Below are positions 15,839 to 43,371 of a stretch of DNA of 64,000 bases, piece after piece (position 1 is the first letter of the stretch; each line of letters starts with the position of its first letter). The notes under the pieces were generated by a model. The model saw only the letters and a list, made by a program, of their open reading frames with translations, did not search any database and had not been told where the DNA came from. The translations under genes and the position numbers were made by a program. This DNA comes from an uncultured Clostridium sp. (GTDB taxonomy: Bacteria > Bacillota_I > Bacilli_A > RF39 > UBA660), in assembly GCA_964589375.1 (NCBI GenBank), contig CAZPSA010000001.1:1410-65409 (forward strand), in the 5' to 3' direction.

Positions 15839-15846
15839 TTGCTTGA

Positions 15847-15893
15847 GCCAAACTTGTTTGGCAATCGAAAATGCAATAAACGTAGTTTGTTGC
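15847..15893. promoter_or_regulatory. Candidate oriT or operator: two adjacent inverted repeats
   Basis: IR1 is GCCAAAC-TT-GTTTGGC (15847-15862, perfect). IR2 is GCAATAAAC-GTA-GTTTGTTGC (15873-15893, 8/9). They lie in the only sizeable non-coding gap (15839-15951) next to the relaxase operon. Confidence 0.3.
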
Positions 15894-15951
15894 TTTTTCC
15901 TTATCCTGCCTATAAAATAAGCAAATTTGCAACACTTTTCCTACCTCTTTT

Positions 15952-16296
15952 TTAGTTCTTGGTGTCTCCTTCCATGATATTTTTGACTAGGTTTTTTAGT
16001 GGATTAGCTTCATTTTTTTCATCAATTACTAGGACAAATTCCCCTTTTTCTAATCTTCTTTTTTCAGCACTTTTAATTCCACCTAATCTTCCATACTCTC
16101 TACATTTAATATCTCTATCAATTTGTGTCTTGATTAAATTAAATGTTGATTTAATTGTTGCATCATTAGTTTCTGGAAGACGTCCTAAAAATACATAATC
16201 ACATAAGAATTTAATAAACTTTCCTGCTTGTTTATCATTCATTGCTTTAATAGAATTTGCATAACTTTCCTTAAACTTAAATCCATTTTCTTTCAT
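15952..16296 (-). CDS. Small phage/ICE-type DNA-binding-like protein (replisome-organiser-N-like; family name uncertain)
   Basis: MNDKQAGKFIKFLCDYVFLGRLPE...IKTQIDRDIKCREYGRLGGIKS resembles a pattern common in phage and ICE replication or accessory modules. Confidence 0.45.
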   Translation of the reverse strand: MKENGFKFKESYANSIKAMNDKQAGKFIKFLCDYVFLGRLPETNDATIKSTFNLIKTQIDRDIKCREYGRLGGIKSAEKRRLEKGEFVLVIDEKNEANPLKNLVKNIMEGDTKN

Positions 16297-16315
16297 TTAG
16301 AGTTCCTCCTTTCTT

Positions 16316-27100: not shown

Positions 27101-27320
27101 CTTTTGCTCCTCTATTAATCCTTCTTCCTATTTCATTCCACTCTTCAAATGAATGACAAATTTCTAAATCATTTCTTTGAATAATTACTTGACATGCAGT
27201 ATGAAGAGTAATGTGTGGATTAATTGATGTAAAGTGATAAAAAGATTTAAGCTTTGAACTATTCCTTAGCATTTCATCTATTAGTTCATTTCTTTTGCTT
27301 AATCTTTTCACTTCATTCAT
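18114..27320 (-). CDS. 3068-aa polyvalent conjugative-element protein: ArdC-N-like, N6-adenine DNA methyltransferase, SNF2/DEAD helicase, repeat modules, AEP prim-pol and a PriCT-like tail
   Basis: The methylase (aa ~520-800) has VLESSMGTGNFF (SAM motif I) and VVGNVPFG (motif IV). The helicase (aa ~1285-1860) has HHVVGAGKTYT, FIDEAHFYKN, CGAGTN and EQREGRIIRQG. The prim-pol (aa ~2765-2935) has CCIDLDKC and SISGNGVHLF. Confidence 0.9.
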   Translation of the reverse strand: MNEVKRLSKRNELIDEMLRNSSKLKSFYHFTSINPHITLHTACQVIIQRNDLEICHSFEEWNEIGRRINRGAKGIPYYDTNGYKRYLFDSSDTNGKEEFTRYYYPLERLLIGLDEINNTNLINDERSDYRKIHNGIKNYLENDNYLANDLTRNKSLIEGISYILYSKTDKPNQDNIYINPLPYSLNENANLFKEIYFKAHEIQKEIEEAYLSSLEKEEEINVDEIHEEFLDDFEQESFDEEIESIDINEEIENEKILVKEEHSSNKSKSKQTGIKDRKKKELTLFDVSSEKIKEEKLIEWGIKHGSGFVDGRLRIYYEYHKNPTLSDFAKFIKDEYGIGGMSDSTHNLWNDSKGLYLENKDKEHEDDNAKVFLKWNEVAVHVADLIDEDNYLTADEKDRLDMFIFIKENPDINEKIKSLVEEKIEEAVDNTTSLSWVTYFDEFGEDEDFVRKHLDLYLYHLEDSIKVADVEVMEDGIDVVYYGDYCKNVEFEDEEEIQNFEEEHVEISEVEEIVEDEELGGLKQRFKNNIEAIKLQKRLYEENRNPTDEERKVLLKYVGFGGLAQAFDEFNEKWKNEYIELKSLLSDVDYERAKGSVLNAHFTSREVIEGIYKSLEKFGVEGSNKVLESSMGTGNFFRFMPEVISNDSKLYGVELDNITGRIAKKLYPNVNIQIKGFEDTTFPNNHFDLVVGNVPFGGYSVYDKDYNKYNLLIHDYFIAKSVDKVRPGGIVAVITSKGTMDKQSQNARKYIADRAELIGAIRLPNTAFKKLAGTEAVADILFLKKRDTPINATLENTEWLGVSKNEFGYELNNYFINHKEMILGTLKEDFGLYGAIDLTVIPDERELSTALDDAVKLLPQDIFEKSINEELIESNNERIEVDYDLKNLCFKVVDNKLYQRVNDEMEEVEIPKTPKDALIRITKMIELRKSLRNILDLQISGCSDEVLATEQVELNQKYDEFVKKYGFLNSSVNTKLFKDDGDSSLLFASEFISSDKKTATKADIYFKRTIRPYTKITSINDSFEALQISKNELGRVDISYIESLTKKDYDTIIKELGSSIFRDPELITIDDKYSGFVTSEEYLSGNVKKKLITAFNYKNSYPNFGFEKNVKALEEVQPPPLKATEIAVRLGASWIDTKIYKDFLVETLDIPYYYASGIDVFYNKHDSSYRVDLTANYVRGFRSQKIASLSTSRASAFRLFEDSLNLKSTSIYDTIEVDGKEKRVLNKEETIAAREKQNRIKEMFKEWIFKDPERRDMLEETYNNLFNQIRLPTYNGSYLRFPEMNPTITLKDHQKDAVHRIITSGNTLLHHVVGAGKTYTICAAAMKLRQYGLAKKPMIAVPNHLVRQWANEFRTLYPNANLLIATKEDLEKTNREKFVSKVALGDWDAVIIAQSSFAKIPISTERQIRKIKEEISKIEASIRNGWETDGVPRGAIKNLERIKKSRETSLKKLLDEGKKDSVLIFENLGVDYLFIDEAHFYKNLFLYTKMNNVSGISTAASQRATDLQLKCEYINELHKGDKGIVFATGTPISNSMTEMYTMQTYLQPRTLQELGITYFDGWAADFGETITSLEMSPSGQGYRAKTRFAKFTNLPELLTLYRSFADVKTKDMIKLDVPNQVRNVITLKPSENIIELAEEIADRAEAISGGGVDPHIDNMLKVTSDGKKLALDPRCFDPNAVDEMGSKLNECAYRVSEVYKKTNHFKGTQLIFCDLSTPKCAFDDYEYGKDFDVYNDLKYKLTILGIPKEEIAYIHEANSDLQKQALFSKVNEGEIRVLIGSTEKCGAGTNVQKRLIALHHLDTPYRPSDMEQREGRIIRQGNQNSEVEIYTYVTERTFDSYSYQILENKQRFISQVNNGNLTIREADDIDEATLTFAEIKAITAANPKIKRKMELDTEIARLKVLEGQYKKNLYLLQDKIRRDLPLAISKQELYLENLKKDISLLNSLYKPDSEDFLINVKGINYTDKKEGTKALGDALMVAKDDEVIAEYNGFKISLNPIILLTQERSITLSASGRYTMDIGTSSIGNMTRLDNFFKEFPLREDRVERKLEQLKKDLSDAKVQVDMPFEHKEKLEELQIELNEINAELDLNKSDDVVISEDENNNYRGVIIEDIKESEIIEPFDKVASLRVNILPSYEVSQDEMNKYGYSWNGMLPIKVNSVDVMRKLGLDVYKLYPNDTESKLDDDSDIENHDGLFGIEKPEWIEFLKSNEAKDYFNTRLDFITTSSEVVNEMLDYMEEDHTKFLDVNANEKEYIKRFVLPLGESSSDDKKRFGKVLADEFSKRIEDSFGKGVILQFGFSNEEIRNELISNLDNEELKTYLSKNNFYKEMVSHKVINEYEELRKDILSKGNDEAFKESYKIHFFTELKDFLTSEENNLDDKEYEMLFRENVPILSSLFDYYLKEEYSSIENYSEINNLVVSYNEKYNKNLVKEEENIMQENHEVESEKKNWLKINVPTSALIRKYDNHSFLRMPTSHEEYGGYTYNMFNSRIKQGRMITDLQSDSRELCLELIVEENEQIILRNGDKEKVVTGLEFEKLVRGTMDKDYETPKSYNEMVTLSVPVESRIGKYESSSLFVLPNYSKYKGQDFYIPNRFVEDDKLKDGRLKISLPDNFSISVKNRETNEITKITPFDLIEEMDSSNIDDYRKSNTNWNVVSVNKEARLGVYEESSLFKMPNGSYQGFCYYLPNKLIKDTSDTHLRINLQDDMEITLKNKSNEQIILKVDEFISEVGGKDLKDYESGLVRPSSVTNNAFVEREKVLRANVPEEMKKMPNWVVVRTRENETKGRLDKFLIDVHTGKFARSDDPTTWTTFDEACKYARENNCETLAYALDGKNGICCIDLDKCITKDGSYSPLTKEVLFASDNTYAETSISGNGVHLFGKTNGMDLRTFSRNGDLEFYQKSHFIAMTGDLINEESNSLRNFDALPIKKILEATCDKRTPFMGCGEGVEGLSLMSDRDVVEKAINSKHGETFKALYEGQDLQNNHSNSDMSLMNRLAFWCNGDKEQMIRIFATSGLFRPGKSPDYYESTAIKAIRDTTERFRPTKTEAPKVVKPSGSFFGKGS
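19116..19967 (-). repeat. Three tandem ~85-95-aa protein modules inside the polyvalent gene
   Basis: The three copies start WLKINVPTSALIRKYDNHSFLRMP..., MVTLSVPVESRIGKYESSSLFVLPN... and WNVVSVNKEARLGVYEESSLFKMPN... Each ends in a ...I.L.N....E.I....EF/FD... strand pattern. Confidence 0.75.
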
Positions 27321-27704: not shown

Positions 27705-28148
27705 TTAAAAATTTTTTAAATTTTTTTTCAAATTATTTAAAGCTCTCTCTAAAGTAATAGAAATACAAGCTTCTGATACTCCTAATTCTATTGAAACTTC
27801 TCTTTGTGTCTTTTCTTCAAAGAATATTTTAATAATAATTTCTTTTTGTCTTGGTCTTAATTTTTCTATTGCTTCATGTAATTTTTTATTAAATTCTTCT
27901 TTTTCTAATTCTTGTTGTTCTATTAATTCAATTTCATCTTCACTTATACTTGTATCAGCAAGTTCAAATCCATACTTTTGATTTAAGTATTCTAATGATA
28001 CAGTTCTTGCGTGATATGTTTTATCTTGTTTAAGTTGTCTTTCAAACTCTTTATTTAACTCCTCAATTAACTTTTCTTCATCAATATTTTCAGTTTCAAT
28101 TTCAATTGAATATTTAGTAGTCACTTTATAAATAACTTTCTTTTTCAT
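27705..28148 (-). CDS. Sigma-70 family (ECF-like, region 4) sigma factor, first gene of the ICE operon
   Basis: LRPRQKEIIIKIFFEEKTQREVSIELGVSEACISITLERALNNLKKNL is a typical sigma region-4 HTH. This parallels the sigma-like Orf7 of Tn916-type elements. Confidence 0.7.
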   Translation of the reverse strand: MKKKVIYKVTTKYSIEIETENIDEEKLIEELNKEFERQLKQDKTYHARTVSLEYLNQKYGFELADTSISEDEIELIEQQELEKEEFNKKLHEAIEKLRPRQKEIIIKIFFEEKTQREVSIELGVSEACISITLERALNNLKKNLKNF

Positions 28149-28389: not shown

Positions 28390-28566
28390 TATTTAATCCC
28401 TCCTTTGTAATCTTATTTAAAAAGATTATAAATTTTAAGATTTTAATATTAATGCGTATAATCTAAAACTATACTGCATATAATATTAGTTTATACACTA
28501 ATATTATAACATTAAGACAAGTAAAATATTTGTTATTTTTTATCGTTTAATTTATAATTTTTTCTT

Positions 28567-29034
28567 CTATTTATAATAATTATTAAAAATAATATCTTGT
28601 GGACTAAAAATAGATATATTTTTTTCAATAAACTTTCCTTTACAATGGTTATAATTTGCATAATCATAAAGATATGTATTTACTGCAATTTCACTAACAG
28701 GAAATAAACTTATAAGTTCTATTGGAATCATTACCTTAATTGTATTTTGTTCATAATTTATAATAATATCTTTATTATTTGAATCCTCTGAAATCTCCTC
28801 TAATAAATTATCTATTACTCCATCATCATCTGGAATTAATGTGTTCTTAGAAATAATTATATTACCTTTTTTTATATAAAGCGATATATTATATATATTC
28901 ATAAATTCAATATCAATTATTTCAATACAAATTATATTATTTCTAATAGTATCTTGTTCAAACATTATTATAAAATAATCCGTATTTAAGTCATAATTAA
29001 TTAAATAATTTACTATGTTTTGACATTTTTTCAT
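28567..29034 (-). CDS. Hypothetical 155-aa cytoplasmic protein, last gene of the RiPP cluster
   Basis: ORF track entry, 2 nt after the ABC gene. It has no TM segment or recognisable motif. Confidence 0.5.
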   Translation of the reverse strand: MKKCQNIVNYLINYDLNTDYFIIMFEQDTIRNNIICIEIIDIEFMNIYNISLYIKKGNIIISKNTLIPDDDGVIDNLLEEISEDSNNKDIIINYEQNTIKVMIPIELISLFPVSEIAVNTYLYDYANYNHCKGKFIEKNISIFSPQDIIFNNYYK

Positions 29035-29036
29035 AT

Positions 29037-30779
29037 TTAATCATACTCCTTTTTTTGTATATTAAATAATTTATAAAAATATCCTCTCTTAGAATATAAT
29101 TCATTAAAAGTTCCCATTTCAACAATTTCACCGTTGTTTAAGACAATAATTTTATCTGCTTTTTTTGTGAATCCAAGTCTATGAGATATTGCTATTATCG
29201 TTGAATCACTTTTTTCTTCATAAAAATTTTTATAGAACTCAATTTCATCTTTTGGATTCATTGAAGATGTTGGTTCATCTAAAATATAGATTTGCGATTT
29301 TTCATCAAGTAGAGACCTTGCAATTGATATTTTTTGCCATTCTCCCATAGACAAAGATTGTCCATTTTCATTAATATTACCTATCTCAGTATACAAACCA
29401 TTAGTAAGAGATTGGACTTTGCTACTAAGTTTAACACTATCAAGACTTTTCATTATTTTTTCATGACTATAATCATTTTTATACAAATTAATATTATCAA
29501 TTAATTTGCTTTGAATATAGAAAATATCTTGTGTTACTATATTAGTAACAGACCTTAAAAATTTTTGGTCATAAATTTCTTCATCACTTACAACTGTTAT
29601 TTTCCCAATAAAATTATCATAAATTCCACTTAAAACATTCGCTAAAGTAGTTTTCCCACTTCCATTTTCTCCAACAATTGCTATTTTTTCGCCTTTTTTA
29701 ATAATTAAATCAATATTCTTTAATACATAATTTTCCATATTCGGATATTTATAACTAATACCTTTTAATTCAATATAAGAAAATACATTTTTATTGTCTT
29801 CAAATATATCTTGTTGATATTCTAAGACTTCGTTTATTTTATTAATATACTCTTTGTTAACTCTGTAATCTGACATTGAAAAAGTAAATTCAATAATAGA
29901 AGATCTTAACCAGAAAATCAATGATAGTATTGTTCCGATATAGCCTAACTCTAATTTTTGATTTATTATATTATAAATAGTTGTTAAAATTATAATTGCG
30001 CTAATTATTCCATAAAAAATATCAGGTAAAATAATATATTTATATTGAAAATTTGTATTTTTTTTCCCTAATTTCACATATTCTTTTTCAGTTTTATCGA
30101 GTTTTTTTTCTATATACTTCAATGAATTATTAACAAATATATCTTGATACGCAAATAAATTCTTTGTTATAGTACTAATATAATTTTTTCTCTTTCTTAT
30201 TAAGTCAAACTCTTTATTATTGAAATTTATTTTATCACTTGCTTTATATGAAATATATCCATAACATATTAATATTGGAATCAGAGTGAATGCAAATATT
30301 ATATTAATTTTTGATAATAAAATAAAATAAATGATAAACTGAAAAAGACTTCTTAATATATCTACTGATTTATAAATTAAATTATCAGATACAGAACCTA
30401 TATTACTTTGTGCTAAATATAATTTATTTAAAGTATTATAATCTAAAAAGTAATTATAGTTTATGTTTTTTACATTGTCATTGAGTTTTTTTTCACAACA
30501 TATATTAATTTTACTACTATATTTTTTTTGTTTAATAGATAATAAATAGTTTAGAAAAGAATTTGCAATAATCAATGATATATATATTAATACTATTTTA
30601 ACATTAAAAATCATTTCTTCCTTATTATTTTCATTAATAGAATTTAATATATTAATGAATTTTTCATTTATTGATATATTATAAAAAGTAAATAATGAGA
30701 TTATAATTGTACAAATGAATAAAAATATATATTTGCGATGTTCTAGCGCTTTAAAACCAATTTTTTGTATTTTTTTCAT
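29037..30779 (-). CDS. ABC exporter, fused permease plus ATPase (half-transporter B)
   Basis: Six hydrophobic segments are followed by Walker A GENGSGKTT, signature LSMGEWQK and Walker B IYILDEPTS. The start was moved to the ATG at 30779, preceded by the SD GGAGG. Confidence 0.85.
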   Translation of the reverse strand: MKKIQKIGFKALEHRKYIFLFICTIIISLFTFYNISINEKFINILNSINENNKEEMIFNVKIVLIYISLIIANSFLNYLLSIKQKKYSSKINICCEKKLNDNVKNINYNYFLDYNTLNKLYLAQSNIGSVSDNLIYKSVDILRSLFQFIIYFILLSKINIIFAFTLIPILICYGYISYKASDKINFNNKEFDLIRKRKNYISTITKNLFAYQDIFVNNSLKYIEKKLDKTEKEYVKLGKKNTNFQYKYIILPDIFYGIISAIIILTTIYNIINQKLELGYIGTILSLIFWLRSSIIEFTFSMSDYRVNKEYINKINEVLEYQQDIFEDNKNVFSYIELKGISYKYPNMENYVLKNIDLIIKKGEKIAIVGENGSGKTTLANVLSGIYDNFIGKITVVSDEEIYDQKFLRSVTNIVTQDIFYIQSKLIDNINLYKNDYSHEKIMKSLDSVKLSSKVQSLTNGLYTEIGNINENGQSLSMGEWQKISIARSLLDEKSQIYILDEPTSSMNPKDEIEFYKNFYEEKSDSTIIAISHRLGFTKKADKIIVLNNGEIVEMGTFNELYSKRGYFYKLFNIQKKEYD

Positions 30780-30789
30780 ATAACCTCCA

Positions 30790-32607
30790 TTATATATCAT
30801 ATAACTCTTTTTGCATATTATATGTTTTATAATATTCACCTTTAAGCTTTAATAATTCTTCATGAGTTCCATTTTCTATGATTTTCCCTTCCTTCATCAT
30901 ATATATTTTATCTGCAATTTTTGCAAACGGAATTCTATGAGAAATAATTATAGTGGTACAATATGTTGATATAGTTTTAACAAAATCCAAAATTTCTTTT
31001 TCTTTTTCTGGATCTATTGAAGCTGTAGGTTCATCCAAAATAAAGATTTGCCTATTTGAAGCCATCGCTCTAGCCAAAATAATCTTTTGCCATTCACCTC
31101 CACTTAAATCAACTCCATCAGAAAAAAGATTCTTATCCATATTTGTATATAATCCATTGGGTAATTTTTCTATTATACTCTTGATCAAAAAATTTTCTTT
31201 CACTTCTTCAATTTTTTCGTTGTTATTAATATTCTTTACATCACTAATCAAAATATTTTCATATAATTTAAAAGAGTATTTATAATAATCTTGAAAAGCA
31301 CATCCATACATATGATTAATTTCAGTTTTATCCAATTTCTTTCCGTTTAAAAAAATTTCTCCACCATAATTCTTTAAAATTCCTAATATTATTTTTGATA
31401 AAGTAGTTTTACCACTTCCATTTTCTCCTAAAATACTTATAACTTCTCCTTTATGTATATCGATATTAATACCATCTAAGGCATTTACATCTCCATTAAT
31501 ATATTTGTAATTAATATTTCTTAACGATAAATGTTGAAATTCTATATTATCATTTACCTCTAATTTGTGATCATTATCATTTAAAAGTATATCATATTCA
31601 TCAACATATAAAGAACTTTTTACAGTCTTAGTAATAGTTTTTGAAAAATAAGTCAATGACGATAATGAAGATTTATAAATAGTAAATAAATATATAGCAA
31701 CTGACAAATTAATATGTTCGTTAATATTCATATAAACTATAAAAAACATGCCTAAATAAATTAAAATCATTCTAATAATATCTAATTTATATTTAGCTTT
31801 TTTTTCTTTAATTTTGTTTTTTAAGTACAAATCATTATATTCGTCAATAAGTTCACTACACTTTTCATATATTTCATCTTCAATATTTAGGGATTTTAAT
31901 TTAAAATTATTTTTATCGTTAAAAATCAAAGAATTATAATAATCTTTCTTCCTTTGTATAGGAATTATATTCTTTTCAAATTCAATAACTTTTTTATTAA
32001 TTTTCAAATCATATATTGTTCTAAAAACTAAATATAAAGCTGAAATAATGCCCAAAGTAATACTATATCTAAATACTAATATAACATATATTATTTTACT
32101 TGAAAACAACATTATGGTAGCATATAACAAACTTCTAAAAAATCTTACAATCTCATTTTTTTTGTTATAACAAAATTCTATTTTAGAATAATCTTTTTGA
32201 TTCAACATACTATCATATTTAATATTACTTATGTGATTATTCATCATTTTTTTAGTTAATTTCGATCCAAATAAACTAAAATAATAAATATCTAAATATT
32301 GAGTAAATAATGATATGATAGGTTGAAATATAAAACTAGAAAAACTGATTAGTATCGTTATAATGATAAGTTCCATACCTATGCTATAAGATATATTTAA
32401 TTGTTCAATTAATATTGTTTGTAAAATTGGAAATAAAAAACTAGTGGCTGTTAAAATAATGTACAAAACTATCCATAAAACACTCAGTAGAGGTGCATAT
32501 TTAAATGATAATACTATGATACTAAATATATTCTTTAATACTTTCTTTAATTTTTTCATAACATATTTATTAAGAAAATTCAATTTCCTCAAATCGTATT
32601 GATGCAT
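30790..32607 (-). CDS. ABC exporter, fused permease plus ATPase (half-transporter A)
   Basis: Motifs are GENGSGKTT, LSGGEWQK and IFILDEPTA. The true start may be the internal Met at 32559. There is no C39 peptidase domain. Confidence 0.85.
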   Translation of the reverse strand: MHQYDLRKLNFLNKYVMKKLKKVLKNIFSIIVLSFKYAPLLSVLWIVLYIILTATSFLFPILQTILIEQLNISYSIGMELIIITILISFSSFIFQPIISLFTQYLDIYYFSLFGSKLTKKMMNNHISNIKYDSMLNQKDYSKIEFCYNKKNEIVRFFRSLLYATIMLFSSKIIYVILVFRYSITLGIISALYLVFRTIYDLKINKKVIEFEKNIIPIQRKKDYYNSLIFNDKNNFKLKSLNIEDEIYEKCSELIDEYNDLYLKNKIKEKKAKYKLDIIRMILIYLGMFFIVYMNINEHINLSVAIYLFTIYKSSLSSLTYFSKTITKTVKSSLYVDEYDILLNDNDHKLEVNDNIEFQHLSLRNINYKYINGDVNALDGINIDIHKGEVISILGENGSGKTTLSKIILGILKNYGGEIFLNGKKLDKTEINHMYGCAFQDYYKYSFKLYENILISDVKNINNNEKIEEVKENFLIKSIIEKLPNGLYTNMDKNLFSDGVDLSGGEWQKIILARAMASNRQIFILDEPTASIDPEKEKEILDFVKTISTYCTTIIISHRIPFAKIADKIYMMKEGKIIENGTHEELLKLKGEYYKTYNMQKELYDI

Positions 32608-34051
32608 AAGGATTTTTATCTAATATCTCTAGTGTTTTCATCATTCTGTTATATACATATTTTTTCTCACTAATACAATCATGTTCATTTATATCTTTCC
32701 AACATTTTCTACATAATCTAACAGCCCAGCATTTATTACATTTTACATTTGATTTTTCAAATTTTCTTACAAAAGTAAATAATTTTTCATAGTTAAACCC
32801 ATTTTTAATATTTCCAAATGTAAGCATCTTTTTATTAAACAATATCTTTTCGCAAGGTGAGAAATCTCCATCAATGGTTACAAACAATCTTCGTTGACAA
32901 ATTGTGCAGCATCCTGTAGGCCAAAACTTATTATCATTTTTTAATTTTATTGGTGAATTTACAAAATATGGCGTTAAAACCTTATCTATTGTTTTAATTA
33001 TATCAGATTTTTCTAATTTTTTATTTGACATGTCTATTGATGAAATATAGTCATAATATTTTTTCAAAAATCCTTCAGAATATGTAATATCATCCACATT
33101 ATAAGTTATTTTGTTATTTTCTATTTCTTTCAATAAATTTTTTGCACAATTTTCATCATATCCTTTAACTATATCGGTAAAACTATGATAGTTATTAGGA
33201 AAAGTATCCTTAAAGAATTTTAAAACATGTTCTTGATATTTTAGCTTAGGAATGACAGAATTAAATTGTATTTTTTCATAGAATTCTGGATACTTATCTT
33301 TTATATTCCTTAAATTTTTCATTATAATATCATGAGTTGGTTTATTATTAACTAGAACTCTTCCAGCATCATGTATCCATTTCGGCCCATCTAAACTAAC
33401 TAAGATTGAAAATTTTTCTTTGACTAAAAATTCAAGTATGTCATCTTTCAATAGAATACCATTAGTTGTTAATCCATAATTAATATTCTTTTGAGGATAT
33501 TTTTCCCTTATATAATTTACGCATTTTTTTATTAGTTCAAATGCAAGTAATGGTTCACCACCATAAAATGATAATGTCACTTGATTATTATTTACTGATT
33601 GTTTCATAAAAAAATCAATACTATCCAATGCTATATCATCTTTCATCATTTTATTTTCGTATCGTGAATCCTTCAAATACATTTCAGAAAATACACAATA
33701 TTTACATCTTAAATTACATTGGCTAGTAACTTCTAATATCAAATGTTTCATATCATGTTGAATTACATCTTTTAAATTTTTATTATCATATTTATATTCT
33801 GGTTTACCAAAATTATAACCCACCAAAATTTTATAATTATTTTCAAGCATTAAATCAGCTAAAAATTTGTACCCTTTTAAATGTTTTTCAACAATTTCAT
33901 TTGGTATTTCTTGTCCTACTTCTATTTGACTTCTTGCTTCTACTATTAATTGATAACTATCCTTGGGAACTCTTATATATTCATGACTAAAAGTATCATA
34001 AATGAAATAATTATTATCAATTTTAAAAACTTCACATATTGGTAATCTCAT
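32570..34051 (-). CDS. Radical SAM / SPASM-domain peptide maturase
   Basis: The radical-SAM motif is EVTSQCNLRCKYCVF (CX3CX2C), followed by SFYGGEPLL. The C-terminal Cys-rich SPASM region is GCCTICQRR...SPCE...VKCNKCWAVRLCRKCW. It lies immediately downstream of the two precursor genes. Confidence 0.85.
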   Translation of the reverse strand: MRLPICEVFKIDNNYFIYDTFSHEYIRVPKDSYQLIVEARSQIEVGQEIPNEIVEKHLKGYKFLADLMLENNYKILVGYNFGKPEYKYDNKNLKDVIQHDMKHLILEVTSQCNLRCKYCVFSEMYLKDSRYENKMMKDDIALDSIDFFMKQSVNNNQVTLSFYGGEPLLAFELIKKCVNYIREKYPQKNINYGLTTNGILLKDDILEFLVKEKFSILVSLDGPKWIHDAGRVLVNNKPTHDIIMKNLRNIKDKYPEFYEKIQFNSVIPKLKYQEHVLKFFKDTFPNNYHSFTDIVKGYDENCAKNLLKEIENNKITYNVDDITYSEGFLKKYYDYISSIDMSNKKLEKSDIIKTIDKVLTPYFVNSPIKLKNDNKFWPTGCCTICQRRLFVTIDGDFSPCEKILFNKKMLTFGNIKNGFNYEKLFTFVRKFEKSNVKCNKCWAVRLCRKCWKDINEHDCISEKKYVYNRMMKTLEILDKNPYASIRFEEIEFS

Positions 34052-34095
34052 TGTTTCTCCTTTCTAGGTATACTCTAAAGCGGGAATAGTGTTAA

Positions 34096-34236
34096 TTATC
34101 TGCCGTAGTTTCCTTCATCACTTTTTTGTCCATCTTCGTATTGATCATCGTCATTTGTACCCGTACAAATACAACCACAAGCAAAGACATTTTTGTTAAT
34201 TTTTTTTATAATTCCGTATATTTTTTCGTTCTTCAT
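34096..34236 (-). CDS. RiPP precursor peptide A2 (46 aa)
   Basis: The SD GGAGAG is followed after 8 nt by ATG. The peptide is MKNEKIYGIIKKINKNVFACGCICTGTNDDDQYEDGQKSDEGNYGR. The track shows it only as the tail of a longer 76-aa ORF. Confidence 0.7.
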   Translation of the reverse strand: MKNEKIYGIIKKINKNVFACGCICTGTNDDDQYEDGQKSDEGNYGR

Positions 34237-34249
34237 AAAAGGCACTCTC

Positions 34250-34396
34250 CTATGCATAAGCTCCAGAAGATAAATAATTACTTCTTGTATCACTTGTTGG
34301 CTTCCCCTTTGAATAAGAGCATGCACATGTGCAACTACATCCCATCAATGAAACCACATTATTTTTATATTTTTTTACTATTCCATATACTTTCAT
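34250..34396 (-). CDS. RiPP precursor peptide A1 (48 aa)
   Basis: The SD AGGAG is followed after 9 nt by ATG. The peptide is MKVYGIVKKYKNNVVSLMGCSCTCACSYSKGKPTSDTRSNYLSSGAYA. It shares the YGI(V/I)KK..(K/N)NV leader and CxCxC core with A2, and is not in the ORF track. Confidence 0.7.
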   Translation of the reverse strand: MKVYGIVKKYKNNVVSLMGCSCTCACSYSKGKPTSDTRSNYLSSGAYA

Positions 34397-34446
34397 TTAT
34401 ATAATCTCCTAACTTTAGTTTTTCACTTTTCCCGCTTTTTAAGTAT

Positions 34447-36075
34447 CTAAGGTAGTATATATTTCAAATATTGAATATCATGAATAATAGGAATATTCAA
34501 TATTTTTGAATTATTTTGAATTTCCTTTTTTATAGTATTTCTTTCCTTTTGGGTATCTATAAATAATCTTCTATATTTATTTTCTCTAAGGTCATAAATA
34601 TCATATAAATTATTTGTAAGATAAATCGCACTAACGTTTTTACCTGTTATACAATTTATAAATCCAACAAAACATTGTAATTTTTCAGCATTATCATTTA
34701 AATTTGCAACAATAACTACACGATCTGCTTCTATCTCTAAAAAGTTCTTGATGTTATCTTTATAATCAGACGTATCTTTATTATTCCTTATTAGATTATT
34801 ATAATAAAATATAAATTCGCGATTAATTGCTTCATTAAATTCATCATTTTTATAATGTAAAAGTTCCATTCCTTTGTTTGTAGATACAATTACCTTATTA
34901 TCATTATGTTCATAAAATTCTTTTTCTACTTCGTATAAATCATTCATAAAGCCAGTATGAACAAACACTATTTTTTCTTGATTATTTTTAGAATAATCAT
35001 AACTCTTATTAAAATATAAAATACCCTTATTATCTATAACATTATTACATATTTTTGTTAATGTGAATTTATCTAATTTAAAATCACCAAATAAAAAGCA
35101 ATCCTTCTTTAGATTAATAAATTCCATTAATTGATTGTATATGTCAACATTTTTTTCAAATGATAAAATAATGATATTTTTATAATTTTTTATATTATCA
35201 ATTGAATAACAATCAATATCTGTTATTAGGCTGTTGATGCACACTTCCGAATTCATTTCATCCCCTATAACTATATTTGAAAGAAAAATTTTTGATACAT
35301 TATATTTAATGTTAATATTTGACTTTAAATAATTTTTTAATATATTATAAGTATATCTATCATGAATATATATACATGTTTCTTCTCTTAAAATAGTACC
35401 TACTTTATTAATTAAACCATAATTGTAATTCGATAACATGGCTATTATTTCATCATATTTTTTAGTCGTTTTAAGATTTTTCGCTATGATGGACCCCACA
35501 TATGCTGTTGCATAACTACTTCCCATTGTTGTAACTGTCTTTTCACCGATTTTAAAATACCATTTTCCATTTGCAATTATATTATCATTTTCAAAATCAT
35601 ACAAAATATTATTATTAAAACCAGGTCCTGATTTTACAGATATTACATTCTTAAATTTTGCGGGTAATAATGTATTTTCAAAATTTTGTGATGCTACGAT
35701 TATTATACCATTTAAACATGCTTTTTCACATATAATCTGTAATTTTTTAATTAATTCTCCATCTTCAATATTATTTTCTTTAAATCCACAGCTAATATTT
35801 AAAACATTAACTTTCTTCTCAATACACCATTCAATAGCAGCAATTAATTCTTCAATTGTACAAGTTAATTCATCGTGAAATACTTTAACACTATATAATT
35901 CTACGTTTTTATTGAAATTTTTATAAATATTTGCTACTAATGTCCCATGATTAATCAAATCAACATCATAATCATCTTCAAATCTATTTATTTTCTCTCC
36001 GTCATAAAAGATGGTTATACCATTAACTATATCTTTTATTCCACTATCAATAATTGCTACTTTTATGTTTTCCAT
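34447..36075 (-). CDS. Cytoplasmic S8 (subtilisin-like) serine peptidase with a ~350-aa C-terminal extension; a likely leader or follower peptidase
   Basis: The catalytic triad motifs are VAIIDSGI (Asp), NHGTLVANI (His) and MGSSYATAYV (Ser). There is no signal peptide. Confidence 0.75.
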   Translation of the reverse strand: MENIKVAIIDSGIKDIVNGITIFYDGEKINRFEDDYDVDLINHGTLVANIYKNFNKNVELYSVKVFHDELTCTIEELIAAIEWCIEKKVNVLNISCGFKENNIEDGELIKKLQIICEKACLNGIIIVASQNFENTLLPAKFKNVISVKSGPGFNNNILYDFENDNIIANGKWYFKIGEKTVTTMGSSYATAYVGSIIAKNLKTTKKYDEIIAMLSNYNYGLINKVGTILREETCIYIHDRYTYNILKNYLKSNINIKYNVSKIFLSNIVIGDEMNSEVCINSLITDIDCYSIDNIKNYKNIIILSFEKNVDIYNQLMEFINLKKDCFLFGDFKLDKFTLTKICNNVIDNKGILYFNKSYDYSKNNQEKIVFVHTGFMNDLYEVEKEFYEHNDNKVIVSTNKGMELLHYKNDEFNEAINREFIFYYNNLIRNNKDTSDYKDNIKNFLEIEADRVVIVANLNDNAEKLQCFVGFINCITGKNVSAIYLTNNLYDIYDLRENKYRRLFIDTQKERNTIKKEIQNNSKILNIPIIHDIQYLKYILP

Positions 36076-36084
36076 AACCTATCC

Positions 36085-36978
36085 TTATATTTCTTTTATT
36101 TTATTATTTAAATACTCAATATTTCCAGTTAAATCATCTGTACGAATAAAAGTATATTTATTTATTAAATAATCAAGTTCAATAGATTTTATAAAATCAG
36201 ATTTTTTTAAATCAAAATTATAAAGTAAATTATTTTTTATTTTTTTATAACTATTTATTTCTGGATTAAATGAGTTTTCTACACCTTTAGTACAAAAAAT
36301 AATTCCTTTTACAAGTCCCTTTTTACATATATTTTTTACATAATATCTTTCTTTTGTTAAAATCTCTTCATTATCAATATATTTGGGTTTTATCCCTCTT
36401 AATAAAGATTTTGTCTTTTCATTGGCATTGATTCCGCTAAATATACCCTCTACATAGATCGAATTATCTTTTTTATATATAATACACATGTCATCACTAA
36501 TTAAATTATAACCTTTATTTAAAATCATTCCTAAACTTATTGTGGACTTTCCAGCATGTTTCTCGCCAACAATTAGAAATGCTTCACCATTTTTTTCAAT
36601 TGCTGTTGCATGTAATATAATTAAATCTAATTTATTTTTATAATGTTCAGCTATTTTATTCATTACATATCTTCTATAACTATAATAACTATCATTATCA
36701 AGTGTAAGCATATAATTATCCTTATTATTTCTCAAAATAATATTATCACAACTAACATTATAGTCTAATATAATATTTTTTTTGAATACATCTATTTTAT
36801 TTTTATACATTATTTTTATATTCATTTTATCAATATTACTATTAGTATCGTGATATAATTCTTTTTTTAAAAAGTTATATATATTTAATGAATTTGTTTC
36901 AATTTTAAATTTGTCATCATCTATTATAAAGTAACATTTCTTCATTTTTAAATTCCTTATATTTATTATATTTTTCAT
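36085..36978 (-). CDS. HPr-kinase/phosphorylase-related kinase (HprK C-terminal-domain-like)
   Basis: LHATAIEKNGEAFLIVGEKHAGKSTISLGMILNKGYNLISDDMCII has the P-loop and following DD typical of HprK-related kinases seen in peptide-modification clusters. The start may be the internal Met at 36945. Confidence 0.65.
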   Translation of the reverse strand: MKNIINIRNLKMKKCYFIIDDDKFKIETNSLNIYNFLKKELYHDTNSNIDKMNIKIMYKNKIDVFKKNIILDYNVSCDNIILRNNKDNYMLTLDNDSYYSYRRYVMNKIAEHYKNKLDLIILHATAIEKNGEAFLIVGEKHAGKSTISLGMILNKGYNLISDDMCIIYKKDNSIYVEGIFSGINANEKTKSLLRGIKPKYIDNEEILTKERYYVKNICKKGLVKGIIFCTKGVENSFNPEINSYKKIKNNLLYNFDLKKSDFIKSIELDYLINKYTFIRTDDLTGNIEYLNNKIKEI

Positions 36979-37984
36979 TTATTGTATCATCTTCATCATA
37001 ATTTAATAATTTAAATTTAAAAAGTTTTTTTAATATATTACAATCACTAAATTCAGTACAACTCATATTACAAATATAATTATATTCACAATTTTTACAT
37101 TTTTTATTATTGCATTTTCCATTTAATGAGCATTTTTTGATCATCCCCAAATTATCAATATATATATACTCACTATTAAATCCACAATCTATATTTGGAT
37201 ATATACTTGGCCAATTTAGTACTTTTATATAATTTGAATAGTTATAACTATATTTCAAAATATACATTGAAATATTTATATATGAATCAACAAGTAGCTT
37301 AGTGTCAACAACCTGATTGATTTCATGAAATATAAATGGAGAAAAAATTAATCCTATATTATTATTAATACATTCGATACAAATTTTTTCCAAATCATTA
37401 TTTATTCTTGGTAAAACAGAAATTTTATGGTTTAATAAATCATTTTTATTTTCTATTATACTTTCAATTTTTTCAACATAAAAAACAATATTGAAAATAT
37501 TAAAATACTTAAATTTTTTTAAAATTTCAAAATTTTCAATTTTTGTGAAAATTGTTAAACTTGATGAAATATCATATATTTTATTAAAATAATTTTCCAA
37601 TAATTTTATATTTTCAAATTTTTCAATGTAAATAAATATTTTATCAACCAAACTACTATTTGCTATATTTTTTATACAATTATACACATTTTTTATTTCA
37701 TATGTTTTTTTTGTTAAATCTACAATGATTTTTTTCTCTAATGCTTTTGAAGATACAATGTAATCATCCAGATTGCTATTTTTAATATTTAAAAATTCTT
37801 CTTCAAATAAATATTCTAATGCTTCATTATATAATTCATTAGAATATTTATATTCTTTTAACTCAGCAATCAATTTTGCTATTTCATCGCTAATCAAAAC
37901 ATATTTATGATTTTTTAAATTCATCAATAAATATATTTCATTATCTATTTTTGACATTCTTACATCTTTACTCAAATAATACAT
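36917..37984 (-). CDS. PqqD/RRE-like N-terminus plus SPASM-type Cys-rich C-terminus, lacking the radical-SAM CX3CX2C motif
   Basis: The N-terminus SKIDNEIYLLMNLKNHKYVLISDEIAKLIAELKEY is RRE-like. The C-terminus is CGFNSEYIYIDNLGMIKKCSLNGKCNNKKCKNCEYNYICNMSCTEFSDC. No CxxxCxxC occurs anywhere in the 355 aa. Confidence 0.55.
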   Translation of the reverse strand: MYYLSKDVRMSKIDNEIYLLMNLKNHKYVLISDEIAKLIAELKEYKYSNELYNEALEYLFEEEFLNIKNSNLDDYIVSSKALEKKIIVDLTKKTYEIKNVYNCIKNIANSSLVDKIFIYIEKFENIKLLENYFNKIYDISSSLTIFTKIENFEILKKFKYFNIFNIVFYVEKIESIIENKNDLLNHKISVLPRINNDLEKICIECINNNIGLIFSPFIFHEINQVVDTKLLVDSYINISMYILKYSYNYSNYIKVLNWPSIYPNIDCGFNSEYIYIDNLGMIKKCSLNGKCNNKKCKNCEYNYICNMSCTEFSDCNILKKLFKFKLLNYDEDDTINEKYNKYKEFKNEEMLLYNR

Positions 37985-37986
37985 AT

Positions 37987-38682
37987 CTAATCCTCATCAA
38001 ATAATATCTTAAATAATTTTTCAGGGCATTCAAGCATCATTTTATATATAACAAAGTGTGATGTATCTTTATAATCCATGCGTTTTACCTCATCATCTAT
38101 ATATATAAAATCAGCATTTGGGTAAGACATTATAATAGGAGAATGCGTTACAACTATTATTTGGGTATCTTTTTGTTTTGACAGTTCATTTATTATACTT
38201 AATAATCTGAGTTGATTTTGAGGAGATAAAGCATTTTCCGGCTCATCTAACAAAAATATTCCTTCTTTAAAAGAATCAAATAATTCTAAAAAGCTTTCTC
38301 CATGAGACAATTCACTAAATTTTTTTCTATAATAAGCCAAAATTTGCGGATCGGATTCAATATAATTATAGTAAGAATTAAACGTATCACTTCTAAAATA
38401 AAAACCTTTTTTAGTTTTATATGACCAAGATAATTTTATGTCCTGTATTTGTCTTAAATTTTCTGTTGATTTATAATTACTATTTTTGTTTCCACCTAAT
38501 ATATTAAAACCAACATTGTCAGCTATATATTTTAAAATTGTTGATTTTCCACAACCATTTTCCCCAGATATTATTGTAACATTATTCTTAAACTTAATGC
38601 TAAAACCATCTTTGAATATTTTAATATTATATGGATAAGTATTTTCATTTTTCGATTCAACTGCTATTTCTTTAAGAATCAT
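37987..38682 (-). CDS. Stand-alone AAA/ABC-type ATPase (no permease domain)
   Basis: Walker A is ISGENGCGKSTILKYIA, Walker B is IFLLDEPENALSP, and the H-loop is VVTHSP. Confidence 0.7.
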   Translation of the reverse strand: MILKEIAVESKNENTYPYNIKIFKDGFSIKFKNNVTIISGENGCGKSTILKYIADNVGFNILGGNKNSNYKSTENLRQIQDIKLSWSYKTKKGFYFRSDTFNSYYNYIESDPQILAYYRKKFSELSHGESFLELFDSFKEGIFLLDEPENALSPQNQLRLLSIINELSKQKDTQIIVVTHSPIIMSYPNADFIYIDDEVKRMDYKDTSHFVIYKMMLECPEKLFKILFDED

Positions 38683-40201
38683 ATATGTTATTTCCTTTCT
38701 TTATAATTACTGGCTGCTCAGTATATGATATATGTTGAAGACTATTTGTAATTTTATTACCATCTATCTCATGTATAATGAAATTTAGTCCTACATTTGA
38801 GTTATAATTTATATCTAACTTTTCCATATCAATTTCAAATTCAAAGCTACCATTTTTTATATTTGGTTTAATATATTCTATTATTTTTGCTCTCTTTTCT
38901 CTTGAATAATCATATTTTACTTCATCTCTTCCAAGCATAGTTTCAGTCATAAATAATTTATCCTTTTTGATCCTTATCATTAATGGATAAAATGGTTTAA
39001 TAAATTCATTAAATGAATTTTTAAAATATAATTGAATATAAATTGCAAAATGGTCTGGTCTTTTATTATTATAGAAATCTAAATTTAAATAAAACTTTTT
39101 ATCAATGACTGTCAAACTATAATTTATGGGTTTATCCCCTAAATTTTTGATAAAACTTTCGTTGTTATTTAGATAATTTTTATTTGATGCTCCAATTAAG
39201 AACTCACTATAAGTATATTTACTTAAAAAATCAATAATTTCATCTTTAAAAAAATATCTATAAATCAAAGGGATATTCCATTTTATTCTACCAATATCTA
39301 CTAAGTCATGTTTCTTATAGTCAATTAATTCTTTTGGAAAAAAAGATAAAAATTCTATGATCCATTCTTCTTGATATATTTCATACATTCTCAAAAAAAC
39401 TAGTCTAATTTTATGAATCAACTTATATTTATGTGCATAATCTAGTATTTTATTCCAATCTAATAAATTATAATTTTTCTTAACAAAACAACATATATCT
39501 ACTAGATATTGCAAAATATATCTTTTTGAAAATTGTAAGGAAAAAATATTTTCAGTAAAATAGTAATAATAATTAATTAATAATAAAAATGTATTATTAA
39601 GGTCAAATGTTTTTACTTCCATTTTATCATATTGTATAATTTTTTGTTCACAATTTATATTATAAATCTGAGTTTTTTCACTATTCTTTAATTCTATTAC
39701 CATCTTTTGGTTGTCAAAAATAATTGGTAATGAAATTTCACCATGTATATTTTCTAAATTTTCATTAAAATCAAAATAACATTTGAATTTTTGTTTTATA
39801 ATTGAAATAAATTTTTGCTTTTCATAAGAATCATTTATAACAATATCTATATCAGAATACATTCTTTTATTTTGCTCACCATATATCAGAGTATTTAATA
39901 TTTTCCCTTTATATATACTATATTTTATATTATTCTCATTTAATAATTTCACAACTTCAAAGAAAAATTCATCGTATGTTTTATAAAATGACAGATACTT
40001 ATTTTTTATTCCCGTAATTACATTTTGATATGGTTTAAAAATATCTAAATCTATTATTTTTTCATAATAATGAAAAAATAATTTATGTTCAATTAGAATA
40101 TCAATAACTTCATCACAATCTATATATTTAATATCATCACCTAAACAATTTATATTGTCCTTAATTAATGAAATTACAAATTTATGATTGATATTTAACA
40201 T
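38672..40201 (-). CDS. Pol-beta-superfamily nucleotidyltransferase-like protein (the uncharacterised NTase family common in RiPP clusters)
   Basis: YKGKILNTLIYGEQNKRMYSDIDIVINDS fits the pattern hG-x(9-13)-DxD. It is the first gene of the cluster, at 509 aa. Confidence 0.55.
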   Translation of the reverse strand: MLNINHKFVISLIKDNINCLGDDIKYIDCDEVIDILIEHKLFFHYYEKIIDLDIFKPYQNVITGIKNKYLSFYKTYDEFFFEVVKLLNENNIKYSIYKGKILNTLIYGEQNKRMYSDIDIVINDSYEKQKFISIIKQKFKCYFDFNENLENIHGEISLPIIFDNQKMVIELKNSEKTQIYNINCEQKIIQYDKMEVKTFDLNNTFLLLINYYYYFTENIFSLQFSKRYILQYLVDICCFVKKNYNLLDWNKILDYAHKYKLIHKIRLVFLRMYEIYQEEWIIEFLSFFPKELIDYKKHDLVDIGRIKWNIPLIYRYFFKDEIIDFLSKYTYSEFLIGASNKNYLNNNESFIKNLGDKPINYSLTVIDKKFYLNLDFYNNKRPDHFAIYIQLYFKNSFNEFIKPFYPLMIRIKKDKLFMTETMLGRDEVKYDYSREKRAKIIEYIKPNIKNGSFEFEIDMEKLDINYNSNVGLNFIIHEIDGNKITNSLQHISYTEQPVIIKKGNNIYDS

Positions 40202-40438
40202 AAATCCTTAAACTCCTCAACTTTCCTTTTTTTTCAAAAATATACTAATTATTCTAATATAATAAATTATTAATTCTAAGTAGTTAATTTTACTAACAAT
40301 AATTTATCTAAAATATCTATTAAACTAAGCTTATAAATTTTTATTTTATCATTTTCATACATCGTAATTTATAACTCAAAAATTAATTTATTAATTTTGG
40401 AACCTTTTAAATTGATTTATATATATATATATGAAAAA

Positions 40439-41572
40439 TTATTTATATTTTTCTAATTCATTTATTTTGTCTAATTGTTCCCATGGAAGATTATCTTTTC
40501 CAAAATGACCATAGTTAGTAGTCAATTTATAAATTGGTCTTCTTAAACCCAAATGATTAATGATTCCTTTTGGGCTTAATACAAATGTTTTTCTAATAGC
40601 ATCAATTATTTCTAAATCAGATACTTTTGCAGTTCCGTAAGTTTTAACCATTATTGAAGTTGGTTCTGATACACCAATTGCATAACTTAATCCAATTTCA
40701 ATTTTTTCAGCAAAACCAGCTGCAACTAAGTTTTTAGCGATATATCTTGCCATATAGGCACCACTTCTATCTACCTTAGATGGATCTTTACCACTAAACG
40801 CTCCACCACCATGTCTTGCATATCCACCATATGTATCAACAATTATTTTTCTTCCAGTTAATCCACTGTCTCCTTTAGGTCCACCAATAACAAATCTTCC
40901 TGTTGGATTAATGTAGTATTTAGTGTTTTCATCTAATAATTCATTAGGTAAAACAGCTTTAATAACGTTATTTAATACAAATTCTCTTACTTCTTCAATT
41001 GTAACATCTTCACTATGTTGAGTTGAAACAACAACATTATCAATTCTTACAATTTTATTATTATCATATTCTACGCTAACTTGAGCTTTTCCATCAGGTC
41101 TTAAGAAATCAACCATTTTACTTTTTCTACATTCTGTTAATCTTCTTGTTAATCTATGTGCAAACATAACAGGTGCTGGCATATATTCTGGTGTTTCGTT
41201 ACTAGCAAATCCAAACATCATCCCTTGATCTCCGGCTCCATCATCAGAGTTTACTCCCATAGCAATATCTGGTGATTGTTTGTCTAAAGCAACAAGTACG
41301 GCTAAATTTTCGGCGTCAAATCCTAATTTTCCTCTGTTATATCCAATTTCATCAACTGTTTCTCTAACAATTTTTTGAATATCCACATTAGCTTTTGATG
41401 TAACTTCTCCTATAACCATTACTAATCCTGTAGTAGCACATACTTCGCAAGCTACATGAGCATTTTTATCTTGCTCTAAATAAGCATCTAAAATACAATC
41501 AGAAATTTTATCGCAAACTTTATCAGGATGTCCTTCTGTAACAGATTCCGATGTAAATACTTCCTTTATCAT
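40439..41572 (-). CDS. metK: S-adenosylmethionine synthetase
   Basis: [51 protein letters not shown] and other canonical MetK motifs are present. Confidence 0.95.
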
Positions 41573-43271: not shown

Positions 43272-43371
43272 AAACCACTCCTTATTAATATCTATAAGTA
43301 AAATTATATCATAATCATAAATAAATAACAAATAATAAAAATATATATCATAAGAAATTTACAAAAATTTC

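Follow-up and report, generated by a model that had tools for sequence, protein, structure and literature searches.

Gene content of the cluster

We analysed a 64,000-nucleotide (nt) stretch of contig CAZPSA010000001.1 (assembly GCA_964589375.1), from an uncultured Clostridium sp.; this whole stretch is referred to below as the window. Between positions 40201 and 28567, eleven co-oriented genes on its minus strand make up a cluster that appears to direct the synthesis of a peptide that is made on the ribosome and modified after translation (RiPP). In their order of reading these genes encode a nucleotidyltransferase (NTase), a soluble ATPase, a protein with a SPASM-type cysteine motif (the SPASM-only protein), an HprK-like kinase, an S8 protease, two peptide precursors, a radical S-adenosylmethionine (SAM) maturase, two ATP-binding cassette (ABC) half-transporters and a protein of 155 amino acids (aa). 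An initial annotation of this DNA had proposed eleven co-oriented genes forming a radical SAM RiPP operon; the open reading frame (ORF) listing places all of these ORFs on the minus strand at the coordinates given below, and the operon is borne out by its gene content, its domain matches and the constrained, colinear character of the block.

The genes lie within a conserved mobile cassette, whose limits (28538..40238) are set by one 11.7-kb blastn alignment, seemingly without gaps, in which L001-L006 and L022 are 93.4% identical to the window; the flanks are unrelated. At 93% identity the cassette recurs in hundreds of metagenome contigs, many of them independent and colinear over the whole block, and its G+C content is 19-24% against 25-30% in the flanking element. 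Packing is tight: the NTase stop and the ATPase start overlap by 11 nt, the SPASM-only gene follows the ATPase stop after 2 nt, its own end is overlapped by the kinase start, and only 9 nt separate the kinase stop from the S8 gene. The protease and precursor genes come directly after the block of NTase, ATPase, SPASM-only and kinase genes. Ratios of nonsynonymous to synonymous substitution rates (dN/dS) were obtained from a codon-level comparison of two cassette variants, that of the window and the 93% variant, and lie between 0.06 and 0.17 for ten genes, among which are the kinase, the SPASM-only gene and the two precursors; the gene of the 155-aa protein has a value of 0.43. All eleven genes are real and under purifying selection. 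A promoter/terminator scan, which is uninformative in such AT-rich DNA, gave no internal terminator in the cluster; an Rfam scan of the window gave no family at threshold, and near-identity DNA searches of plasmid and phage collections returned nothing for the cluster or for the left 25 kb.

The maturase (493 aa; 32570..34051, minus strand, as are all cluster genes below) matches PF04055 above cut-off, and also PF13353 and TIGR04068; its match to the Pfam SPASM domain is weak, at 19.1 bits against a cut-off of 21.5. The motif CNLRCKYC occupies residues 112-119, and both its cysteines C112, C116 and C119 and the SPASM cysteines C382, C400, C438, C441, C447, C450 and C459 are invariant across 22 homologues. 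Its best NCBIfam family, by a wide margin, is TIGR04068 (CcpM), followed by RumMC sactisynthase, lachnocin, TIGR04148 (radical SAM peptide maturase), PapB, QhpD and SCIFF. Apart from an orthologue at 92% identity, the nearest relatives are 30-36% identical, and those named in their source are called CcpM.

Two precursor genes lie upstream of it. Precursor A (48 aa, MKVYGIVKKYKNNVVSLMG-CSCTCACSYSKGKPTSDTRSNYLSSGAYA; full sequence MKVYGIVKKYKNNVVSLMGCSCTCACSYSKGKPTSDTRSNYLSSGAYA; 34250..34396) has an AGGAG ribosome-binding site (RBS), is called as a gene in all related contigs and retains 45 of its 48 residues in the 93% variant (dN/dS 0.12). Precursor B (46 aa, MKNEKIYGIIKKINKNVFA-CGCICTGTNDDDQYEDGQKSDEGNYGR; full sequence MKNEKIYGIIKKINKNVFACGCICTGTNDDDQYEDGQKSDEGNYGR; 34096..34236) begins at an internal ATG of a 76-aa ORF, with a GGAGAG RBS before that ATG, and its core is identical across all variants (dN/dS 0.06). 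The leader motif K-[VI]-Y-G-I-[VI]-K-K-x3-N-V is common to the two, as is their layout: a leader of about 19 aa, an alternating-Cys (CxCxC) core and a hydrophilic tail, which ends in ...SSGAYA in A and in ...GNYGR in B. Many Ser/Thr residues adjoin the cysteines of precursor A, and precursor B has few Ser/Thr.

The S8 protease (542 aa; 34447..36075) is a cytoplasmic subtilisin-like protein with a PF00082 catalytic domain at residues 3-215 (triad D10/H43/S186) and a C-terminal region of about 330 aa; it begins straight at the catalytic Asp and carries no signal or transmembrane (TM) segment. Among NCBIfam families it matches QhpE best (95 bits, cut-off 165), its homology to the S8 proteases of CcpM clusters is limited to the catalytic domain, and on this sequence evidence it is presumed to be the leader peptidase. 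The half-transporters, both with ABC_tran and N-terminal TM segments, are encoded at 30790..32559 (589 aa from the ATG used in orthologues; ORF to 32607) and at 29037..30779 (580 aa; ORF to 30839); they are about 30% identical and probably form a heterodimer. The first of them (dN/dS 0.13) has bacteriocin/NHLP-type exporters among its top NCBIfam matches, the best overall being MsbA, and no C39 peptidase domain was found in it by NCBIfam scan. The last cassette gene, 28567..29034, encodes the 155-aa protein, which has no match in Pfam, NCBIfam or PADLOC; it is kept in all cassette copies that are long enough, and is the least constrained (83% aa identity). No dedicated immunity gene was recognizable among the cluster proteins by Pfam, NCBIfam or TM analysis.

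At the other end of the cluster, the NTase (509 aa; 38672..40201; dN/dS 0.17) has PF14907 (NTP_transf_5) at residues 27-267, at 47 bits against a Pfam cut-off of 31.2, followed by a C-terminal extension of about 240 aa. The ATPase (231 aa; 37987..38682) is a soluble ABC-type P-loop protein of the AAA_15/AAA_21 class (both matched in Pfam), with Walker A (GENGCGKST), signature-like (LSHGE), Walker B (LLDEP) and H-loop (THS) motifs and no TM segment; its PDB and PADLOC matches are to generic nucleotide-binding domains (NBDs) and to no specific family, and it is reported as the most conserved cassette gene (dN/dS 0.07). The kinase (286 aa; 36085..36945, the ORF being extendable to 36978) scores 26.8 bits on PF07475, 37 on TIGR04352 HprK_rel_A (cut-off 200) and 19.9 on TIGR04249 ScmC (cut-off 125). 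It aligns with the catalytic core of HprK structures, and its residues H112, GKS (K133) and D151-D152 are invariant across four homologues, including P0123 from a lasso-like locus (L010); His/Lys/Asp/Asp are the four residues essential in lasso-peptide kinases (PMC9266682).

The SPASM-only protein (355 aa; 36917..37984; dN/dS 0.14) belongs to a near-orphan family with central beta/alpha repeats. It had been described in the initial annotation as a SPASM protein without a radical SAM motif that bears a RiPP recognition element (RRE), and only the former part finds support. The protein has no CxxxCxxC, matches nothing in Pfam or NCBIfam (PF13186 and TIGR04085 included), and carries the C-terminal signature C267-x12-G280-x4-C285; C296-x2-C299-x5-C305-x3-C309, which is conserved with a homologue, P0124; a reading as SPASM-only and radical SAM-degenerate is thus supported at motif level. 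The RRE label finds none: PqqD/RRE models give no match, there is no similarity to lasso B1, and at the N-terminus the low-confidence AlphaFold2 model has only helices. BLASTP was negative for paralogy both with the maturase and with TIGR04066 proteins, and Foldseek matches of the model, in which a central beta/alpha repeat is seen, to TIM-barrel and radical SAM-like folds are all non-significant (E>0.006) and lend weak support at best. Among 1.84 billion representative proteins, a full HMMER search found, besides a fragment, homologues in a single further lineage (P0124, with an identity of 39% according to phmmer and of 36% according to alignment A1). P0124 is followed by a kinase 45% identical to that of the window (L011), and the SPASM-only/kinase adjacency is thereby kept at 36-46% identity. 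A metagenome scan with the SPASM-only profile returned nothing, and a hand-made degenerate pattern only another cassette copy and a truncated remnant.

The Clostridium estertheticum plasmid pCEST-001C (L031, 8598-11733) carries a different radical SAM cluster, next to an agr quorum-sensing locus. It encodes a radical SAM protein, a 52-aa peptide rich in Gly/Ala/Cys, and a 339-aa 'SPASM domain-containing protein' in which CxxxCxxC is replaced by CxxC. Because that cluster pairs an active maturase with a degenerate SPASM protein, SPASM proteins with no functional radical SAM site beside maturases are not unique to the window locus.

Relatives of the core and of the accessory genes

In the neighbourhoods of maturase relatives (L007-L009, L024, L025 and L027) the genes include those of a TIGR04066 protein, of a small acyl carrier protein (ACP)-like protein and of CLI_3235 precursors (TIGR04065); an ABC exporter and an S8 protease with no N-terminal extension are present in most of them. 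In Paenibacillus polymyxa, the SacP23 cluster has been described as having the same gene set (PMC10731318). The CLI_3235 precursors of these relatives have a leader of about 19-20 residues, a CxCxCxC stretch and a hydrophilic tail. A tail motif, 'K-S-D-x-N-Y' ([KT]-S-D-x(1-3)-N-Y-like), common to the window precursors (34096-34396) and one CLI_3235 peptide (L007:9742-9930), was dropped, as it is not conserved in other CLI_3235 peptides and is probably due to chance. TIGR04066 and the ACP-like TIGR04069 have no NCBIfam match among the cluster proteins, and tblastn searches of the whole window with their L007 and L028 representatives gave none at E<=0.05.

These comparisons change how the core is to be described. 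No RiPP class could be named for it in the initial annotation, which also counted the S8 protease among its unusual features; the combination of radical SAM protein, cytoplasmic S8 protease, ABC exporter and precursors with leader and alternating Cys is a divergent version of the CcpM/CLI_3235 system, and the S8 protease is standard in most CcpM clusters examined. As the core can be named and its protease is standard, the cluster is more ordinary than it had seemed, and still offers a testable case of hybrid tailoring.

The kinase and the NTase lead to another class of peptides. Outside its own species the kinase is a near-orphan by word-indexed search, with a single remote match beside an Asn-synthetase-type gene. 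When 185,579 reference genomes were scanned with the kinase profile, five loci emerged: three in Bacillales, one in a Planctomycetia metagenome-assembled genome (L019) and one true HprK, which lies in a phosphotransferase system/rpoN operon and is irrelevant here. The closest relatives in reference genomes, with 42-49% identity over the catalytic core, lie in the Bacillales loci. The one of these that we annotated, from Neobacillus (L018), is a textbook lasso cluster, in which the kinase is accompanied by a PF14907 NTase (208 bits), lasso cyclase, PqqD B1, B2 and ABC exporter, and its lasso precursor ends in Ser; the whole PF14907 region of the window NTase aligns with the NTase of this cluster. 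On this evidence the assignment of kinase and NTase to families shared with lasso tailoring, already made in the initial annotation, holds. So does its statement that lasso cyclase and B-protease are missing: no lasso cyclase, B1 or B2 is found among the cluster proteins, nor by tblastn of the whole window with the L018 proteins. Experiments on lasso peptides show that the C-terminal Ser is first phosphorylated and then glycosylated by HprK-like/PF14907 pairs (PMC9266682, PMC8498205).

The accessory genes had been described as part of an unusual tailoring set. Three of them recur, however, on a 9.4-kb metagenomic contig from among those of the closest maturase relatives (L028, SRR24884222_3231), where kinase, NTase and a SPASM-only-like protein accompany a CcpM-like maturase in the order NTase, 393-aa protein, ABC exporter, HprK-like protein, precursor, CcpM, TIGR04066, TIGR04069. 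The NTase (524 aa) has PF14907 and a long C-terminal extension, and its GDIDIYV aligns with the Asp-x-Asp core stretch SDIDIVI of the window NTase. The 393-aa protein, directly after the NTase, has no CxxxCxxC and a sub-threshold match to TIGR04085 (E 0.0025). The HprK-like protein (301 aa; LHS...GKS...GDD) matches the window kinase by tblastn (E 2e-5), the CcpM scores 471 bits on TIGR04068, just under the cut-off, and the precursor (53 aa) contains Cys and ends in ...LYSGS, so that its C-terminal Ser would fit the rule for lasso kinases. The L028 proteins are only 25-32% identical to those of the window, or not alignable. The contig differs from the window cluster in having kept TIGR04066 and TIGR04069, in having a single, Ser-ended precursor, and in carrying, over its 9.4 kb, no S8 protease or soluble ATPase. 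Because this co-occurrence is independent and very divergent, the trio of NTase, SPASM-only protein and kinase appears to be a recurrent functional accessory of CcpM-type maturation and not an accidental neighbour or hitch-hiker; L028 is the strongest evidence for this view.

Proposed pathway and alternatives

From the gene content, motifs, selection, mobility and family relationships observed, together with the recurrence of the module with CcpM, we infer every chemical step below, as well as the roles of the ATPase, the SPASM-only protein and the 155-aa protein. We think it moderately probable that the cluster is a horizontally mobile, bacteriocin-like RiPP operon which works as follows. The CcpM-like maturase would bind both precursors through their shared leader of about 19 residues and install Cys-derived thioether cross-links of the sactionine or ranthionine type, the QhpE-like cytoplasmic S8 protease would remove the leader, and the two ABC half-transporters would act as a heterodimeric exporter, possibly with a role in immunity. 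The block of NTase, ATPase, SPASM-only and kinase genes would be an accessory tailoring module of a CcpM subfamily: by analogy with lasso peptides, the kinase may act on the linear precursor and phosphorylate a Ser (or Thr) of its C-terminal tail, and the PF14907 enzyme may then add a hexose or a nucleotide to that phosphate. The SPASM-only protein, seen as a radical SAM paralogue without the SAM cluster, could be a non-catalytic partner or scaffold for the maturase (as TrnD for TrnC), and/or a peptide-presenting subunit for the kinase.

A number of findings weigh against this proposal. No product has been observed. The maturase falls under the TIGR04068 cut-off (314 versus 500 bits), and TIGR04065 gives no match to the window precursors at E<=10, whereas the L007 and L009 precursors match at 1e-7 to 1e-10; because of these two results and the absence of TIGR04066 and TIGR04069, the core is filed as a divergent relative that would work like a CcpM system, not as a formal member. 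The kinase scores under every curated cut-off, and its AlphaFold2 model is unusable (predicted local distance difference test, pLDDT, 35). For the SPASM-only protein, the model is also poor (pLDDT 53), no RRE was detected with PqqD/RRE models, and its likeness to SPASM domains is confined to the Cys motif, which hhalign aligns in register with that of the CcpM set without significance (E 0.096). The 355-aa protein of the window and the 393-aa protein of L028 are not significantly similar, their equivalence coming from architecture and position, and the module was found in only one of about ten CcpM-like neighbourhoods examined. Finally, neither window precursor ends in Ser, and a C-terminal Ser is the only specificity rule established for lasso kinases (PMC8498205). 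Because the window precursors do not fit this rule, we speculate that an internal Ser/Thr is used, or that a C-terminal Ser is exposed by trimming.

The same misfit would be accounted for if the four upstream genes took no part in peptide tailoring and served self-protection or regulation, for example by modifying a cell component or the peptide's target or by sensing the peptide, the product being a plain CcpM-type cross-linked peptide. The cluster does have no recognizable dedicated immunity gene, and its ATPase, as a generic soluble NBD, is of a class common in non-biosynthetic systems. We nevertheless regard this as improbable, as peptide tailing is the only function so far linked to HprK-like and PF14907 pairs (PMC9266682), the module recurs in L028 with a CcpM system whose precursor ends in Ser, and the tight packing of the four genes leads directly into the protease and precursor genes.

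Doubt also attaches to the thioether itself, a label that rests on homology because no published cross-link map for any CcpM product was found in the searchable literature. Other radical chemistry might operate, or the cysteines might serve as thiols or disulfides for metal binding, with kinase-generated phospho-Ser/Thr as an intermediate instead of a final decoration, for example for elimination and the formation of lanthionine-like rings. The abundance of Ser/Thr next to Cys in precursor A is compatible with such chemistry, and the role of PF14907 enzymes is biochemically unsettled even for pseudomycoidin (PMC9266682). To this account too we give little credence: most of the best-scoring characterized families (RumMC, PapB, QhpD and SCIFF) form thioethers, no lyase- or cyclase-like protein was detected in the cluster with Pfam or NCBIfam, and precursor B has few Ser/Thr.

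That the four-gene block is an unrelated defence or toxin-antitoxin-like unit travelling on the same transposon seems very unlikely. In favour of it, the ATPase matches many PADLOC ATPase models (GajA, PtuA and AriA among them), and one copy (L023) retains NTase, ATPase and SPASM-only protein with the rest of the cluster missing. Against it, these PADLOC matches are confined to generic P-loop ends, no defence match was obtained for the NTase, kinase or SPASM protein, and L023, where the SPASM gene is fused and mutated (C309W), is truncated and not a stand-alone unit. The module also accompanies CcpM-like maturases in two clusters that share only 25-32% protein identity.

As a tentative and rather doubtful generalization, the window cluster, L028 and L011 could represent an undescribed RiPP subclass of thioether Cys-rich peptides which a lasso-type kinase/PF14907 pair also phosphorylates and either phospho-glycosylates or nucleotidylates, with a radical SAM pseudo-enzyme, still carrying SPASM but devoid of the SAM cluster, as obligatory scaffold. 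Here the system would make a two-peptide product and be passed between gut Acholeplasmatales-like Bacillota through conjugation and IS3 composite transposition.

Mobile setting and comparison with known systems

The cassette is mobile. On a 1.7-Mb chromosome contig (L012) it lies between two directly oriented 1.78-kb copies of an IS3-family insertion sequence (IS), at 520-2296 and 15572-17348, which are 99.8% identical; the arrangement looks like a composite transposon, and because the IS copies bracket the cassette, many assemblies break into contigs of about 13 kb. The chromosomal flanking proteins of L012 bear the names 'Firmicutes bacterium CAG:313' and 'Acholeplasmatales bacterium', and the gut-derived name Firmicutes bacterium CAG:313 suggests a gut environment for the cassette, as do several record names that are similar to those of human-gut cohorts. 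This IS-flanked variant also has two extra small ORFs upstream of the NTase, at 2903-3115 and 3620-3817 (70 and 65 aa, no family); only a remnant of the 3' end of the 65-aa ORF, 86% identical, is present in the window (40288-40353).

The window copy lacks an IS and is carried by a conjugative element, a conjugative plasmid or integrative and conjugative element, which encodes on the minus strand a VirB4/TraG-like ATPase (5857-8487), a type IV coupling protein (11809-14025) and an ArdC-like antirestriction/metallopeptidase protein (16316-17974). A 3068-aa ORF of the same element (18114-27320, minus strand) shows, by eye, methyltransferase-like, SNF2/helicase-like and primase-like regions. A gene immediately beyond the downstream boundary of the cassette (27705-28148, minus strand) encodes a small sigma-70 region 4 protein, which is part of the element backbone and lies outside the cassette; the gene list of the SacP23 CcpM cluster also includes an extracytoplasmic function (ECF) sigma factor (PMC10731318).

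On the other side, 237 nt upstream of the cluster and on the same strand, an intact metK (SAM synthetase; 40439-41572, minus strand) lies outside the conserved cassette; it may supply SAM to the radical SAM enzyme. The only DNA match of this right flank is metK on Clostridium perfringens plasmids, at 75% identity. A 395-aa protein without Pfam match is encoded two genes upstream of metK (42144-43331, minus strand). A truncated metK N-terminus abuts the cluster in L023, whose decayed copy (L023:5163-8759) has NTase, ATPase and SPASM-only genes 97% identical to those of the window; its SPASM-only gene is fused after residue 344 to unrelated DNA of higher G+C content and carries C309W in the SPASM motif.

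CcpM-type peptides are an uncharacterized branch of the radical SAM RiPPs, with cross-links unmapped in the searchable literature. The window locus and L028 show that a subset of CcpM systems has recruited a kinase/nucleotidyltransferase pair otherwise known only from lasso peptides; this would be the first case of such tailoring chemistry on a radical SAM scaffold, and our search of the searchable literature found no paper that links HPr-kinase-like enzymes with radical SAM thioether RiPPs. The locus would also provide a natural example of a SPASM protein without a radical SAM site, which bears on accessory radical SAM paralogues such as TrnD. The cassette is abundant in metagenome assemblies, its carrier is an uncultured lineage with a small genome, and it is mobile in two ways; its product may therefore play a part in competition within the gut.

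Four known systems invite comparison. The SynChlorMet (SCM) and 'HprK-related kinase A/B' NCBIfam cassettes, which combine an HprK-like protein (ScmC) with radical SAM/SPASM and PqqD-like proteins and are defined in databases, resemble the cluster in that its kinase gives weak matches to ScmC, HprK_rel_A and HprK_rel_B. However, these matches reach 20-37 bits against cut-offs of 125-200, and the cassettes come from Proteobacteria, Chlorobi and Archaea and have no identified precursor.

Thuricin CD has two precursors (TrnA/TrnB) that need a TrnC-TrnD complex, in which only the radical chemistry of TrnC is strictly essential (PMC12093266). The window cluster likewise has two different precursors, a thioether-type radical SAM maturase and what may be a second protein of the radical SAM family. 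TrnD, however, is an active radical SAM enzyme, whereas the SPASM-only protein has no SAM-cluster motif and adjoins the kinase instead of the maturase.

With the tailored lasso peptides (paeninodin PadeK, ThcoK; pseudomycoidin PsmK/PsmN) the cluster shares the same families of HPr-kinase homologue and PF14907 protein; it differs in having no cyclase, B1 or B2, in a scaffold enzyme that is a radical SAM protein, and in precursors that are not Ser-ended.

The closest likeness is to the CcpM/CLI_3235 systems, with which the cluster has in common its top maturase family and nearest homologues, a QhpE-like unextended S8 protease, an ABC exporter, the build of the precursors and a frequent location on mobile DNA, as for the window cassette. 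It differs in adding the NTase, ATPase, SPASM-only protein and kinase, and in having two dissimilar precursors and two half-transporters. We thus interpret it, from these family relationships, as a CcpM-like RiPP cluster in which a SPASM pseudo-enzyme and a lasso-type kinase/NTase module have apparently been added or have replaced TIGR04066/TIGR04069.

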